This document shows, piece after piece, positions 36,842 to 40,592 of a stretch of DNA of 64,000 bases (position 1 is the stretch's first letter; each line of letters starts with the position of its first letter). Under the pieces are notes generated by a model that made no database searches, had not been told where the DNA came from, and saw only the letters and a program-made list of their open reading frames with translations. A program made the position numbers and the translations under genes. The stretch comes from an uncultured candidatus Porisulfidus sp. (GTDB taxonomy: Bacteria; Pseudomonadota; Gammaproteobacteria; Poriferisulfidales; Poriferisulfidaceae): positions 1,376,001-1,440,000 of the forward strand of contig OZ220480.1 in NCBI GenBank assembly GCA_965116025.1, read 5' to 3'.

Positions 36842-37353
36842 ATGCCGACACCAGGATCCCGTGAAGAGCTTCTTGATGCGATCAACACGAGCTTTGATCG
36901 TCTTGATAAGGATCTGAGGATGGTGCCCGTGGCGAAAAGCGATGAAGCGACCCTTGAGGGGCATGTCAAGGGCACGGCAATGAGCGTCCACGATCTGGCA
37001 AGCTATCTCTTGGTTGGAATATGCTGGTGCTGAAGTGGATTGAACAGGACGCGGGAGGCGAGCCGATTGATTTTCCTGAGACCGGTTTCAGATGGAATCA
37101 GCTCGGCGCGCTCGCGCGAAAGTTTTACGCGGATTTCGACACCGTTCCTCTTGGTCGGCTTTTGGAGGCTCTCGAAGTCACAAAACAGGAAATCGTCACG
37201 TTCATTTCCGGCCAGACCAACGAACGCCTGTACGGTGGGCCATGGTGCGGGAAGCACACCATGGGCCGAATGATCCAACTCAATACGTCCTCGCCGTACG
37301 CTAATGCCCGCGCGCGTTTGCGGAAATGGAAGCGGCGACATGGCATCGCATGA
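36842..37353 (+). pseudogene. ClbS/DfsB (DUF1706) family four-helix bundle protein, frameshifted near 37010
   Basis: MSVHDLASYL continues in another frame as GWNMLVLKW...DFPETGFRWNQLG...GRMIQLNTSSPY; adding one base restores a protein of about 170 aa. Confidence 0.8.
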
Positions 37354-37555
37354 TGGAGACTGACGGCGAAGGGTTCTCGCTTGGATGTTCAGGCTTTTGT
37401 CGTTGGAAAACGTCTCTTTCGATCATTGGCGAACTTCAGCATGCCGCTGATTACAATGGGTTTTCGGAAAAATTCATCGAGGGCCGCGGTGTTGACGGTG
37501 AGGCCCTGCCGCGGCGTGGGCGACCGGTCGCCTTCAGGGCCCCGCCGTCCGGGAA

Positions 37556-37585
37556 CGTGAAACCGCGCTTCAGTCCCACGCCTCG
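37556..37585 (+). repeat. 30-bp imperfect direct repeat, copy 2
   Basis: Matches 36600-36629 at 27 of 30 positions. Confidence 0.8.
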
Positions 37586-37639
37586 TCAGAAGACTCCGTT
37601 TTCCCGGTCTGGGCGACATATATGGTTCGCCCCCTCCCT

Positions 37640-37883
37640 GCAAGTCGGAAGCTTGAGGCGACGGTCGATCGGCCGCGCACATATATCCGGCCTCTCGGTG
37701 GGAGGACGTCGCCTCCCGGGCCCCGATGGGTTCCGCACGCTCCGGCCTTATCATTTGTACGGCCTCGAAGGCCTATGTCAACACCAGGCTCTCGGAGCGT
37801 CGGTCCGACCTGTTCCGCCATCCTTTCGCTTCTTCCCCGCAACCGATCGGCGGGCGAAGCCCGCCGGGATCCGGAGGGAAGCC
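37640..37883 (-). ncRNA. Predicted bridge/seekRNA, distal copy (boundaries approximate)
   Basis: Segments matching the target and donor junctions at 37680-37686, 37725-37730, 37752-37758 and 37775-37780. Confidence 0.7.
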
Positions 37884-38267
37884 TCACGTCATGCAGGCTT
37901 CCTCCCGATAGGTTCCGCCACGCCGGAGCAGCGCCCAGGCGATGCGGACGTTCTTGTTCGCCAACGCGACCGCCGCCACGTTGTCGTGGTGGCGCTCGCG
38001 CAGGCCGCGAAGCCAAGCGCCGAGCGCGTCCTCGCGCTGGTCGGAGACCCGCAACACCGCTTTCGCGCCCAAGATCAGCAGGCCGCGCAAGGCGCGGTCC
38101 CCCCGCTTGCTGATCCCTCCGAGCTTCGGCTTTCCGCCGGTGGAGTATTGCCGCGGCACCAGGCCGAGGTAGGCGGCCGCCTCCCGCCCGTCGCGGAACT
38201 CGCCGCCGTCGCCCAGCTTCGCGACCAGGGCGCTGGCCGACAGCGCGCCTATGCCCGGGATCGTCAT
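37884..38267 (-). pseudogene. Duplicated C-terminal (Tnp) domain of the IS110 recombinase
   Basis: MTIPGIGALSA...PRQYSTGGK...ALANKNVR, identical to the last 127 aa of the full recombinase. Confidence 0.85.
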
Positions 38268-38287
38268 ATATGGTTCGCCCCCTCCCT

Positions 38288-38531
38288 GCAAGTCGGAAGC
38301 TTGAGGCGACGGTCGATCGGCCGCGCACATATATCCGGCCTCTCGGTGGGAGGACGTCGCCTCCCGGGCCCCGATGGGTTCCGCACGCTCCGGCCTTATC
38401 ATTTGTACGGCCTCGAAGGCCTATGTCAACACCAGGCTCTCGGAGCGTCGGTCCGACCTGTTCCGCCATCCTTTCGCTTCTTCCCCGCAACCGATCGGCG
38501 GGCGAAGCCCGCCGGGATCCGGAGGGAAGCC
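38288..38531 (-). ncRNA. Predicted bridge/seekRNA, proximal copy directly downstream of the recombinase gene (boundaries approximate)
   Basis: Same guide segments shifted by 648 bp; the 3' position is typical of the IS1111 subgroup. Confidence 0.75.
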
Positions 38532-39578
38532 TCACGTCATGCAGGCTTCCTCCCGATAGGTTCCGCCACGCCGGAGCAGCGCCCAGGCGATGCGGACGTT
38601 CTTGTTCGCCAACGCGACCGCCGCCACGTTGTCGTGGTGGCGCTCGCGCAGGCCGCGAAGCCAAGCGCCGAGCGCGTCCTCGCGCTGGTCGGAGACCCGC
38701 AACACCGCTTTCGCGCCCAAGATCAGCAGGCCGCGCAAGGCGCGGTCCCCCCGCTTGCTGATCCCTCCGAGCTTCGGCTTTCCGCCGGTGGAGTATTGCC
38801 GCGGCACCAGGCCGAGGTAGGCGGCCGCCTCCCGCCCGTCGCGGAACTCGCCGCCGTCGCCCAGCTTCGCGACCAGGGCGCTGGCCGACAGCGCGCCTAT
38901 GCCCGGGATCGTCATCAGCCGCCGGCAGCCCGGGTCGGCCTCGGCATGCGCCTGGATCCGCGCCCGGCAACGCCCCTCCCGCCGGTCCAGCTCCCGCACC
39001 TCCTCGTAACCTTCCGCCAGCGCCTCGCGGACTTCCGGAAGCAAGCCGTTCTCGCCGTCCTCCAGGATCTCCGGCAGCCGCGCCCGAAAGACCCCGATCC
39101 CTTTCGGCATGACGATCCCGTACTCCTGCAGGAACGCGCGCGACTGATTGACCAGCCGGGTGCGGCTCCGCACCAGCCGCGCCCGCGTCCGATGGCATTG
39201 CTGGATCGCTTGCTCGGCTTCCGTCCGCGCCGGCACGAAGCGCATGCTCGGACGGCTCCGCGCCTCGCAGATGGCCTCCGCGTCGCGCGCGTCGTTCTTG
39301 TTCGACTTCACGAACGGCTTCACGAAGGACGGCGCCATCAGCCGCGCGTCATGCCCATGACGACGGAACAGCCGCGCCCAGTGATGCGCGCCGCCGCAGG
39401 CCTCCAGCCCGACCCGGCATGGCGGCAGCTCCTCCGCGAAGCGTTCCAGCTGAGCCCGCGTGAAGCGCCTCTCCAGCACGATCTTGCCGGCGCGCGTCAT
39501 GCCGCAAGCGTGAAACGCCTGCTTGCCCAGGTCCACGCCCAGATGGGCGATGGCCAGTTGATGTAGAGTCCGCTTCAT
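38532..39578 (-). CDS. IS110 family recombinase (DEDD RuvC-like plus Tnp domain)
   Basis: GVDLGK, GLEAC, KNDARDAEAI (D-E-D-D), IPGIG, QYSTGGK with the conserved Ser. Confidence 0.96.
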   Translation of the reverse strand: MKRTLHQLAIAHLGVDLGKQAFHACGMTRAGKIVLERRFTRAQLERFAEELPPCRVGLEACGGAHHWARLFRRHGHDARLMAPSFVKPFVKSNKNDARDAEAICEARSRPSMRFVPARTEAEQAIQQCHRTRARLVRSRTRLVNQSRAFLQEYGIVMPKGIGVFRARLPEILEDGENGLLPEVREALAEGYEEVRELDRREGRCRARIQAHAEADPGCRRLMTIPGIGALSASALVAKLGDGGEFRDGREAAAYLGLVPRQYSTGGKPKLGGISKRGDRALRGLLILGAKAVLRVSDQREDALGAWLRGLRERHHDNVAAVALANKNVRIAWALLRRGGTYREEACMT

Positions 39579-39670
39579 AAGGGTCGTCCCGCTTTCGCGA
39601 TGGGTTGGTTGTACTCTCATTGTGCCCGCTCAAGGCCAAGCAGGGAAGCGGGGCGAACCATCCCATCATT

Positions 39671-39679
39671 TGTTAAAAT
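39671..39679 (+). promoter_or_regulatory. Candidate extended -10 promoter of dapA
   Basis: TGTTAAAAT about 28 nt upstream of the dapA ATG, abutting the IS end. Confidence 0.5.
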
Positions 39680-39707
39680 GCGGACGGGCTGACCCACAAA
39701 CTCTCGC

Positions 39708-40592
39708 ATGATTCGTCTTCAAGGTAGCATGGTCGCCATGGTCACCCCCATGCGCGCGTCCGGCGACATCGACTACGCGGCGCTGGCCGACGTGGTGGAC
39801 TTTCATCTGGAGCGGGGCACTGACGCGCTGGTTCCGGTGGGCACGACCGGGGAATCGGCGACCTTAAGCGTATCGGAGCACCATGAGGTCATTCGCCGCG
39901 TGGTGGAGCGAGTGGATGGGCGAATTCCGGTGATCGCGGGCACTGGCGCCAACGCCACCGCTGAAGCCATCGAGCTGACTCGTTACGCGCATGAGGCGGG
40001 AGCCGACGCTTGCTTGCTGGTGACGCCGTATTACAACAAGCCGACCCAAGAGGGTTTGTACCAACACTATCGGGCGGTCGCCGAGGCCGTGCCGATCCCG
40101 CAGATCCTGTATAACGTTCCGGGTCGGACGGCCTGCGACATGTTGCCGGAGACGGTGACGCGGCTGGCTGGGCTGGAATGGATCGTTGGCATCAAGGAGG
40201 CGACTGGCGACCTGCACCGGATTCGCCGCCTGCGCGAGTCGTGCGGCGACGAGTTCATCATTATCAGCGGAGACGACGAGACATCCATGGATACGCTACT
40301 TAACGGAGGGCAGGGAGTGATCACGGTGACGGGCAACGTGGCGCCCGAGCTGATGCACGAGATGTGCATGGCCGGGCTGGAGGGAGATGCCGAGGCGGCG
40401 CGCGCCCATGATCGGAAGCTGGAGCTGCTCCATCGCGATCTGTTCGTCGAGTCCAGCCCGATTCCAGTGAAGTGGTGCTTGCACCGCATGGGATTGATCC
40501 CGGAGGGCATCCGCCTGCCGCTGACTCCGCTCTCGGAAGGGTTGCGCGGGACTTTGGAGGCCGCCATGCGCGCGGCGGGGGCGCTGGCGTGA
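39708..40592 (+). CDS. dapA: 4-hydroxy-tetrahydrodipicolinate synthase
   Basis: GTTGES, TPYYNKPTQEG, LYNVPGRT, GIKEATG, SGDD. Confidence 0.97.
   Translation: MIRLQGSMVAMVTPMRASGDIDYAALADVVDFHLERGTDALVPVGTTGESATLSVSEHHEVIRRVVERVDGRIPVIAGTGANATAEAIELTRYAHEAGADACLLVTPYYNKPTQEGLYQHYRAVAEAVPIPQILYNVPGRTACDMLPETVTRLAGLEWIVGIKEATGDLHRIRRLRESCGDEFIIISGDDETSMDTLLNGGQGVITVTGNVAPELMHEMCMAGLEGDAEAARAHDRKLELLHRDLFVESSPIPVKWCLHRMGLIPEGIRLPLTPLSEGLRGTLEAAMRAAGALA

Follow-up and report, generated by a model that had tools for sequence, protein, structure and literature searches.

The 64,000-nt stretch of DNA analysed here (the window) carries on its minus strand a 1402-nt insertion sequence of the IS110 family, IS1111 group, which very probably combines a DEDD/Tnp recombinase with a 3' bridge (seek) RNA of about 157 nt that holds both a target and a donor guide loop. 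Seven copies, 92–100% identical, are present in the genome; the target guides are their most variable part, and natural retargeting is seen among these near-identical copies. The element is a clear but ordinary addition to the RNA-guided IS110/IS1111 elements, whose underlying biology is already known. Its parts, in window coordinates, are:

39669–39673, minus strand: target left half ACAAA (junction sequence), matched by the 3' side of the target loop
38267–39668, minus strand: full insertion-sequence copy, 1402 nt, TGATGGG...CCATATA, bounded by the convention of Siddiquee et al. 2024 (PMC11187229; this and the other papers below are cited from portions of their text)
39650–39661, minus strand: left subterminal inverted repeat ATGGTTCGCCCC, with the 7-nt extension TGATGGG on its outer side (39662–39668)
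38532–39578, minus strand: transposase/recombinase gene, 348 aa, ATG at 39578; DEDD RuvC-like and Tnp domains, GLVPRQYSTG
38314–38470, minus strand: bridge/seek RNA core as modelled, 157 nt (covariance model)
38422–38433, minus strand: target loop 5' side GGUGUUGACAUA, including UGACAU; complements top-strand TG plus the right flank
38409–38421, minus strand: hairpin GGCC-UUCGA-GGCC closing the target loop; helices 5 and 6 covary
38397–38408, minus strand: target loop 3' side GUACAAAUGAUA, including ACAAAUG; equals the top-strand left flank plus TG
38373–38378, minus strand: donor loop 5' side CCCAUC; complements left-end GATGGG and may also pair with the 5' GAUGG
38328–38334, minus strand: donor loop 3' side AUAUAUG; equals right end ATATA plus TG
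38270–38281, minus strand: right subterminal inverted repeat GGGGCGAACCAT, with the 3-nt extension ATA on its outer side (38267–38269)
37617–38267, minus strand: exact 651-nt repeat of 38265–38915 (sequence comparison)
37609–37618, minus strand: target right half TG-TCGCCCAG; the empty allele is without the T at 37616

Family membership and element boundaries

The recombinase, whose reading frame is open from 39620, upstream of the ATG, matches Pfam PF01548 (DEDD domain, residues 27–167, E = 3e-20) and PF02371 (Tnp domain, residues 232–312, E = 4e-24), and scores 342 bits against NCBIfam NF033542, ‘IS110 family RNA-guided transposase’ (cut-off 140). Its Tnp domain is alignable to the IS621 transposase 8wt6 (E = 9e-7), with GLVPRQYSTG opposite GLTPRRYESG at the nucleophile motif G--P----S/TG; the T-G variant of G--P----S/T-G is known in IS1111 members (PMC11187229). 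The closest relatives found share 46–68% protein identity and come from metagenome genomes. The subterminal inverted repeats (ATGGTTCGCCCC / GGGGCGAACCAT) are 12 bp long, within the 7–17 bp that characterise the IS1111 group, and lie inside extensions of 7 nt on the left and 3 nt on the right (TGATGGG-sTIR ... sTIR-ATA) with no target duplication, while the noncoding region is longer downstream of the gene (about 265 nt follow the stop, whereas 90 nt precede the start). The IS1111-type assignment of the earlier note is thus borne out by the DEDD and Tnp domains, the 12-bp subterminal inverted repeats and the long 3' noncoding region.

Read on the minus strand, the left junction is ...TAACAAA-TG-ATGGGATGG and the far right junction ...CCATATA-TG-TCGCCC. 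A contig from sequencing run X1 passes straight from 37615 to 39667, leaving out 2051 nt, and provides a natural empty allele (ACAAATG joined to CGCCC) that includes the left half-target ACAAA; occupied junctions were found in run X2, and the insertion is therefore polymorphic. The empty target reconstructed previously, ACAAATGTCGCCC, is longer than this allele by one T; that difference of one T between observed and predicted target counts against our best explanation. Homology of the left flank to same-genus genomes reaches TTTAACAAA in 9 of 11 loci and then diverges, so that synteny within the genus yielded the left target boundary only, the right side having diverged.

A tandem 651-nt repeat

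The interval 37617–39673 had been taken for one element. It consists instead of a full 1402-nt copy (39668–38267) and an exact 651-nt repeat, 38267–37617 duplicating 38915–38265, the last 651 nt of the full copy. The repeat contains the last 127 transposase codons, a second RNA (37666–37822) identical to that of the full copy, and a second right end, and it is this partial copy that the right half-target adjoins. The RNA coordinates given in the earlier note belong to the full copy.

We regard it as a serious though lesser probability that the repeat is an assembly artefact, or a tandem duplication through the microhomology ATG, rather than a product of the recombinase. A-TG is all that the two joints have in common; the internal site GCTGA-TG-ACGATCC fits A-type guides at only 9+2 of 16 positions (Watson-Crick plus wobble pairs, as throughout); and no contig bridges the tandem joint 38264/38265 among those listed from four sequencing runs. 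Against this, the genome was assembled as a single 2.02-Mb contig, and the repeat joint, CCATATA-TG-ACGATCC, places one endpoint to the base at the element's right terminus, which is the normal crossover point, a coincidence that a random duplication within a 1402-nt element would be unlikely to produce. The 2051 nt skipped by the empty allele of run X1 equal the full copy plus the repeat plus 3, which shows only that both are absent there.

A conserved structured RNA downstream of the gene

Four guide segments had been described in the 3' noncoding region, and all four lie on the minus strand where they had been placed: TGACAT (38428–38423), ACAAATG (38406–38400), CCCATC (38378–38373) and ATATATG (38334–38328), with AGGCCTTCGAGGCCGT between the first two. 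Dinucleotide-preserving shuffling of the 262-nt noncoding region, repeated 5000 times, produced the motifs singly in 0.3%, 6.3%, 9.3% and 0.1% of cases, at least two of them in 0.42%, and all four in none.

The covariance model R1 matches 77 of 80 relatives' loci, downstream of the gene. Across 71 distinct sequences, 85.5% of cells in the model pair, against 74.4% in shuffles, and double changes occur in 21 of 29 pairs, a level reached in 0 of 500 shuffles; the pairing score collapses once helix partners are slid. These results uphold the claim of a structured 3' RNA, which runs from a 5' GAUGGC motif through a small hairpin to the target-binding loop and then the donor-binding loop. The helices framing both guide loops covary, the closing helix of the donor loop being only 3–4 bp long with covarying inner pairs, and in the minimum-free-energy fold of the window's copy alone (copy A) both target segments fall in a 12x12 internal loop. 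A search of Rfam, whose library may hold no model for such an RNA, gave 0 matches at E up to 1 in 37000–40200. A promoter scan of 37500–39800 returned no promoter-like site in the linear element, and a terminator scan of the same interval returned one terminator-like site, on the other strand and inside the gene.

No segment lies in a helix of the covariation-supported framework of target- and donor-binding loops. CCCAUC is in a loop of this framework, but a competing helix may sequester it: 91.5% of cells pair between the 5' GAUGG and CCAUC, with two covarying pairs. One of these changes from G-C to C-G in L013/L014 while the left end is unchanged. CCCAUC may accordingly be sequestered by the conserved 5' GAUGG, or that complementarity may be its main constraint. 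A speculative and rather unlikely elaboration is that the invariant 5' GAUGG is a built-in mimic of the left end, and that its helix with CCAUC is a switch on donor capture. The helix crosses the closing stem of the donor loop, which would impose a pseudoknot or mutual exclusion, and it would keep the loop closed until displaced by donor DNA; the portions of the bridge/seek RNA literature covered here describe no RNA-level donor-capture switch.

Donor guides follow the element ends

Both donor segments vary with the ends of the element. In 23 of 24 classes, which include three end types (ATATA, ATACA, ATGTA), the right-end guide begins with the five letters of the right end, and its last two letters track the right-junction dinucleotide (TG, TT, TA, CG, AG). 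In relatives, the left-end guide tracks ATGGGAT, ATGGAAT and ATGAGAT. The donor-loop roles proposed for CCCAUC and AUAUAUG are supported by this covariation, with the short closing helix and the competing 5' helix as caveats.

It is improbable, in our assessment, that the target loop alone acts as a guide and the protein recognises the ends through the subterminal inverted repeats, with CCCAUC and AUAUAUG conserved for other causes, for instance because they help to fold the RNA or form an RNA-RNA helix with its 5' GAUGG motif. An 82-nt seekRNA was enough for transposition of ISEc11 (PMC11187229), so that a donor loop is not proven necessary in the IS1111 group, and the same authors suggest that end recognition differs between families. 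The GAUGG/CCAUC helix, with its L013/L014 change unaccompanied by any change at the left end, and the donor loop's 3–4-bp closing helix also lean this way. Against such a reading stand a right-end guide that follows three end sequences and five junction dinucleotides, matching 5/5 in 23 of 24 classes, and a left-end guide that covaries at a position outside the GAUGG helix (ATGG-G/A-AT against AU-C/U-CCAU); moreover, donor-complementary loops are reported in IS1111 members (Durrant et al. 2024, PMC11208160).

Target guides follow insertion sites

In IS1111 seekRNAs the top-strand match lies 5' of the bottom-strand match and the two overlap in the target, which is not duplicated (PMC11187229); the bridge RNA of IS1111 elements is located in the right end (PMC11208160), and guide strands and cleavage after the core have been described (PMC11208158). 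Among the seven genomic copies, 11 of 24 columns of the target loop vary, against 157 of 1379 elsewhere (Fisher p 3e-5), giving five guide variants (A/B, C, D, E/F and G). Out of 16 positions, copies A, B, C, E and F fit their own guides at 12+1, 11+1, 11+2, 12+1 and 11+2, and the other guide family fits those sites at 5–7. Copy D fits its own guides at only 8+3, where a 1-nt bulge would rescue the right side, and copy G at 3+1. Comparison of the flanks with ACAAATGTC, as had been proposed, found five of the seven sites without the consensus, yet the different guides of those copies fit their own sites, which strengthens the guide reading rather than refuting it. Six further same-genus copies have the same guide-site pattern.

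Three paralogous sites are unoccupied (...ATTG-TA-TCGAA / ...TATCG-TA-TCAAACG). The second of these sequences fits the E/F guides at 13+1 of 16. The empty paralogous sites have a single TA, where occupied ones have TG at the left junction and TA at the right. An Rfam scan of three target-site loci gave no match.

The same correspondence holds among relatives. Both ends could be anchored for 79 of 88 full-length RNA hits; with the mis-anchored L027, L034, L060, L075 and L031 dropped, 74 rows were left for the guide-flank test, in which two mis-anchored L021 rows were retained, to the detriment of the result. With 71 element-site pairs, falling into 54 guide classes, matches of the right guide number 7.14 of 9 at its own site, against 4.08 in cross-pairings, and those of the left guide 4.42 of 6, against 2.49. 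Matching as good was reached in 0 of 2000 permutations, a significance that is overstated, as the relatives are not independent. The target-loop roles assigned to UGACAU and ACAAAUG thus have the backing of natural variation among the copies and of the 54 guide classes.

That the matches are chance, the loop differences neutral drift in an unconstrained RNA and the choice of site the protein's alone has next to no probability: the matches are short (6–7 nt), copies D and G misfit their own guides, and two of the four motifs turn up singly in 6–9% of shuffles, but all four turn up jointly in 0 of 5000, the permutation result covers 54 classes, copies with differing loops sit at different, matching sites, matching sites exist unoccupied, and a role for the RNA has been established experimentally in the family (PMC11187229, PMC11208160).

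A junction rule with one shared nucleotide

The junction-rule set comprised 72 rows, reduced to 69 unique sites. The first junction nucleotide, T, is the same at both junctions in 64 of these, and the second in 16; within each lineage the left dinucleotide is constant and the right one variable. The other genomic copies likewise have TG at the left junction and TA, AG or GG at the right. At the left junction the TG comes from the element; at the right junction the dinucleotide is the target's. The 3-nt ATG core proposed earlier does not survive this comparison, only T being regularly common to both junctions and the ATG of copy A a coincidence of its site. The extensions of 1–2 nt across the core that had been likened to handshake pairing are present in copy A, but those positions are patternless in relatives (TA, TG, AT, CA, AC), and handshake pairing as a general reading is unsupported. 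The left guide ends in TG in copies C–F, whose targets have TA, and in two same-genus copies, whose targets have TT, which indicates that the last position of the left guide does not read the target. We considered heteroduplex formation followed by segregation as a source of the unequal junction dinucleotides, and rejected it, as it predicts both outcomes and the left dinucleotide is constant in every lineage.

Proposed mechanism

We infer that the RNA is made and binds the recombinase, that a circle forms, and that pairing directs its insertion. The target loop, between a covarying outer stem and the GGCC hairpin, would pair through its 5' side with the top strand of the target right half and through its 3' side with the left half, on its bottom strand. 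For the joined ends the donor loop would do likewise, CCCAUC with left-end GATGGG and AUAUAUG with right-end ATATA plus TG. The recombinase would excise the element as a circle with the junction CCATATA-TG-ATGGG, creating a putative promoter, TTGCAG-17 nt-TATGAT, read by eye from the joined ends; by analogy with ISEc11 (PMC11187229), TTGCAG at 38286–38291 is a possible -35 element. The circle would then go into a site that the target loop fits, with no target duplication, the left-junction dinucleotide travelling with the element and the right-junction one being that of the target.

Bridge/seek RNAs are under development as tools for programmable recombination. The near-identical elements of this genome form a natural series, with five guide variants in seven copies and more in sister genomes, together with matching sites both occupied and unoccupied, and the series shows which guide positions change along with specificity. 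For this subfamily, one nucleotide only is regularly common to donor and target; at the second ‘core’ position, one junction always keeps the base of the element and the other that of the target; and the last base of the left guide need not read the target. These three rules are useful for guide design with IS1111-type enzymes, and are in line with models where the inserted copy mirrors a single transferred strand. The case is a well-documented example of known biology, not a discovery.

Comparison with known systems

ISEc11, ISPa11, ISKpn4 and ISPst6 (Siddiquee et al. 2024, PMC11187229) share with the present element a RuvC-like DEDD domain with a C-terminal GL-P----S/TG, subterminal inverted repeats extended by 7 nt on the left and 3 nt on the right, insertion without target duplication and a long noncoding region after the gene. 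Their seekRNA, too, has the match to the top strand 5' of that to the bottom strand, with overlap in the target, and natural retargeting there likewise proceeds via changes confined to the target-matching stretches. The element described here differs in sequence and targets and is known from sequence alone. Its retargeting is among copies 92–98% identical in one genome, whereas that in PMC11187229 is between elements 72% identical, and the donor-matching stretches evident here are not described for those elements in the portions of that paper covered.

Like the bridge RNA of IS621 (Durrant et al. 2024, PMC11208160; Hiraizumi et al. 2024, PMC11208158), that of the present element contains two internal loops, each of which would read both strands of one DNA partner, one guide per loop equalling the top strand and the other being complementary; in both systems the crossover adjoins a short shared core, which the left-hand partner retains. 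The Tnp domain can be aligned with that of IS621, overall identity being low and only this domain significant. The RNA lies after the gene here and before it in IS621, and its guides come in mirrored order, which on the other strand becomes that of the IS621 bridge RNA; the junction rule then becomes the IS621 top-strand rule. Unlike IS621, the present element has long inverted repeats, a shared core of effectively one nucleotide (64 of 69 sites) in place of CT, and handshake positions with no consistent pattern.

ISPpu9 of Pseudomonas putida (Pares-Guillen et al. 2025, PMC12288879) is also present in seven copies in one genome, and is accompanied by extra solo 3' RNA modules and by partial modules attributed to alternative recombination products, a likeness to the tandem repeat, although the partial module here includes part of the recombinase gene. 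In the portions of that paper covered, the small RNA of ISPpu9 is not required for transposition and there is no junction promoter, in contrast to the RNA-directed insertion and circle-junction promoter proposed for the present element.

Element anatomy and family

The main point of the earlier note, that this stretch carries an IS1111-type RNA-guided recombinase element with readable guides, is real and was correctly interpreted, although the anatomy requires correction. The interval that it took as one element, 37617-39673, does contain a full copy but also an unmentioned exact 651-nt tandem repeat, so that it consists of one full element followed in tandem by a second copy of the element's last third. 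On the minus strand, the interval opens with ...CATTTTAACAAA-TG-ATGGGATGGTTCGCCCC, and the noncoding stretch 3' of the recombinase ORF covers ~265 nt, terminating GGGGCGAACCATATA-TG.

Features of the interval
39668-38267, minus strand: full 1402-nt element (copy A)
39620/39578-38532, minus strand: recombinase ORF
38267-37617, minus strand: partial copy
37884-38402, minus strand: 172-codon ORF (predicted only), from the first RNA region across the tandem joint into the second Tnp-domain copy

The recombinase has the DEDD RuvC-like and Tnp domains of IS110-family enzymes and scores 342 bits against NCBIfam NF033542 ("IS110 family RNA-guided transposase"). The Tnp domain can be aligned (E 9e-7) to the IS621 transposase, whose structure has been solved, with GLVPRQYSTG falling at the position of IS621 GLTPRRYESG. 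The marks that descriptions of the IS1111 group include, namely the T-G form of the motif, subterminal inverted repeats, 7-nt left and 3-nt right extensions and a long post-gene noncoding region (PMC11187229; PMC11208160, in their accounts of the group), are all found here, the inverted repeats being 12 bp. No promoter-like site was found in the linear element; its joined ends would read TTGCAG-17-TATGAT, a predicted junction promoter of the kind described for ISEc11 in the relevant part of PMC11187229. Copy A is inserted 40 nt upstream of where a dihydrodipicolinate-synthase gene begins (PF00701, E 5e-104; window 39669-39708) and points away from that gene.

Copies and insertion sites in the genome

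The genome, a single contig (C1) of 2.02 Mb and 62.7% G+C, holds seven full copies (A to G, 92-100% identity) besides the partial copy, and also five short remnants, all of them solo and broken off at internal points.

Copies, remnants and unoccupied sites
C1:1108100 and C1:270698: copies E and F, 3 nt upstream of ATG in two of five members of an ~830-nt repeated sequence
C1:595864, C1:1697474 and C1:254713: the three unoccupied members (L105-L107), fitted by C-F guides at 10-13 of 16 positions
C1:94937-96304: copy G, the oldest and most divergent (92%), with a 34-nt deletion in the recombinase gene
C1:429091-429252 and C1:1475607-1475766: solo remnants with RNA and right end; each has a further target-loop variant
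C1:91277-91607, C1:1239921-1240114 and C1:1471592-1471744: solo left-end remnants

The left junction is TG-ATGGG in every copy, while at the right CCATATA is followed by TG (copy A), TA (C, D, E and F), AG (B) or GG (G). The unoccupied members read ...CATTG-TA-TCGAA (two) and ...TTTATCG-TA-TCAAACG, so the target has one TA; in the inserted state the element's TG stands at the left junction and the target's TA is kept at the right. This fits the published convention, as set out in part of PMC11187229, that the left dinucleotide is the element's and nothing is duplicated. Within the ~830-nt repeat is a small gene whose coiled-coil product has a weak CCDC90-like match (E 0.0065, below the cut-off).

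Guide segments lie in loops of a conserved, predicted RNA framework

All four guide segments lie where the earlier note placed them, with AGGCCTTCGAGGCCGT between the first two. Minimum free energy folding of copy A's 267-nt region beats shuffles only modestly (z = -2.09) and places GGUGUUGACAUA and GUACAAAUGAUA on opposite sides of a 12x12 internal loop, flanked by the GGCC hairpin and a stem (CGCUCCG.../...CGGAGCG, then GCCU/AGGC). Relatives were gathered by protein search (the best 80 of 526 confirmed, 46-68% identity), and aligning 20 RNA regions yielded a consensus in which compensatory change occurs in 15 of 26 pairs. The disputed 5' helix considered below was left out when a covariance model was built; this model matches loci of 77 of the 80 relatives. 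Across the matched set of 71 distinct sequences, pairing holds in 85.5% of cells versus 74.4% in shuffles and double changes occur in 21 of 29 pairs, values that none of 500 shuffles equalled; sliding the partners by one column lowers pairing to 45-54%. Covariation is seen in every helix framing the target loop and, in the donor loop, in the inner helices; the donor loop's closing helix is short (G-C in 69/70, C-G in 67/70, then 62/70 and 49/70, the last as C-G, G-C or U-A). None of the four segments is in a stem of this framework; each falls in one of its loops. An Rfam search returned zero matches to the element's RNA.

Target guides follow the insertion site

The target loop is where the seven copies vary most: 11 of its 24 columns differ, versus 157 of 1379 elsewhere (p 3e-5), and leaving out the divergent copy G gives 9/24 and 77/1379.

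Target guides of the full copies (5' side; 3' side)
A and B: UUGACAU; ACAAAUG
C: UUGAUAC; UCUAGUG
D: UUGAUAC; UAUUGUG
E and F: UUGAUAC; UAUCGUG
G: UUGAUCU; ACGAAUG

Scored as Watson-Crick plus wobble pairs over 7 + 9 positions, own-guide fit is 12+1 for A, 11+1 for B, 11+2 for C, 12+1 for E and 11+2 for F, and the other guide family reaches only 5-7 at these sites. The unoccupied TATCG-TA-TCAAACG is fitted by E/F guides at 13+1. Two copies run counter to this reading: D, with one extra A in its right flank, has an own-guide fit of only 8+3, and G of 3+1 of 16.

In relatives, ends were anchored in 79 of 88 full-length RNA matches and five mis-anchored rows were removed; the test set comprised 71 element-site pairs in 54 guide classes. 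Two rows of L021, a Lamprobacter genome record, were mis-anchored because its two copies of a related element form a head-to-head pair within 4 kb (1083-1252, minus; 2661-2830, plus); these rows remained in the test set, where they weigh against the match. Right-flank guides match 7.14 of 9 positions at their own site versus 4.08 in cross-pairings, and left-flank guides 4.42 of 6 versus 2.49; 0 of 2000 class permutations equalled the observed sum, although these figures overstate independence because the relatives' sequences are akin. The effect is large despite this kinship, and six additional copies in four sister genomes have a like pattern. Loop variation and guide-flank matching across 54 classes thus bear out the two target-guide roles.

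Donor guides and a possible crossing helix

The 3' side of the donor loop consists of GGAU, the right end's last three bases and the right-junction dinucleotide; in 23 of 24 classes its first five letters are those of the right end (types ATATA, ATACA and ATGTA), and its final two track TG, TT, TA, CG or AG. The 5' side tracks the left end, with AUCCCAU or ACCCAU accompanying ATGGGAT, AUUCCAU accompanying ATGGAAT and AUCUCAU accompanying ATGAGAT. This tracking of both element ends supports the donor-guide roles, and together with the target guides all four assignments hold.

RNAalifold additionally pairs an invariant 5' GAUGG (38466-38470) with CCAUC of the left-end guide (38373-38377). The covariance model was not fitted to this helix, which was scored on the alignment that the model produced: 91.5% of cells pair and two of the five pairs covary, one being A-U in 36 and G-C in 33 sequences and another G-C in 61, C-G in 2 and G-U in 3, while one pair is broken in 25 of 71 sequences. 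Since it crosses the donor-loop closing helix, it would imply a pseudoknot or mutual exclusion. The helix could be an anti-guide element, switching donor capture by hiding the left-end guide; alternatively it may be a side effect of left-end tracking by both strands. In the C-G case (loci L013 and L014) the left end is unchanged, and at locus L071 the 5' motif tracks the guide, not the left end.

The target of copy A and the tandem partial copy

Nine of 11 same-genus loci upstream of the dihydrodipicolinate-synthase gene read ...TTTAACAAA and then diverge. A 509-nt contig of sequencing run X1 joins 37615 straight to 39667, with six differing letters to one side and an exact match to the other; it represents a related strain with the empty site ACAAATG|CGCCC, and the insertion of copy A is polymorphic. 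The earlier reconstruction of the empty target is the same as this allele except that the allele is one T shorter; more distant relatives have AAAGTCCGCCC, a sequence that weakly favours the extra T as ancestral. Both occupied junctions of copy A are present in a second run, X2.

The partial copy is an exact repeat of 38915-38265 (spacing 648; 100% identity, query positions 759-1409). The first right end is not continued by flank but by ACGATCCCGGGC..., the recombinase gene from an internal CTG-ATG-ACG on, and the right half-target TG-TCGCCC adjoins the partial copy, which carries a second, identical RNA region (two covariance-model matches in L001). At the joint, CCATATA-TG-ACGATCC, one endpoint is the exact right terminus of the element and the other the internal GCTGA-TG-ACGATCC, which A-type guides fit at 9+2 of 16 positions. 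The most economical reading is that a right junction recombined with this weak left-junction look-alike on a sister chromosome, which would have duplicated the intervening stretch. A microhomology duplication or an assembly error is a less likely but plausible alternative, since the tandem joint is bridged by none of the listed contigs. From the junction ATG the frame runs on into the last 127 recombinase codons (MTIPGIG...), within the 172-codon ORF.

The junction rule and comparison with IS621

ATG does not stand as a three-base core: other copies have TA, AG or GG at the right junction, and copy A has ATG on both sides because its target happened to carry A-TG. The first junction nucleotide is identical at both sides in 64 of 69 unique sites, the second in 16, and within each lineage the left dinucleotide is constant and the right one variable. 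The right-junction dinucleotide ends the left target guide in 54 and the right-end guide in 53 of these 69 sites; in this genome and a single sister genome, TG always closes the left target guide, regardless of target (TA, TT). A general handshake reading finds no support. Extensions do exist in copy A, as the earlier note saw (UA of the right-flank guide into the right end, AU of the left-flank guide into the left end, and U of AUAUAUG into the flank), but in every relative the bases past the left-flank guide are a constant GAUA/GAUG, and the two past the core in the right-flank guide are patternless (TA, TG, AT, CA, AC).

Guide order is reversed between the two groups according to the seekRNA paper where it treats this point (PMC11187229), and reading our RNA on the opposite strand gives the IS621 order, a top-strand-identical guide followed by a complementary one. 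IS621 top-strand products, as described in portions of PMC11208158 and PMC13626964, arise by cleavage after the core, which stays with the left-hand partner. The junctions observed here correspond to these products, and the other strand's version was never seen in natural insertions; we infer agreement with a preprint's proposal of mainly top-strand insertion (bioRxiv 10.1101/2025.10.25.684509). The element is another member of the already known IS110/IS1111 RNA-guided group, and it offers a useful natural series of guide variants.
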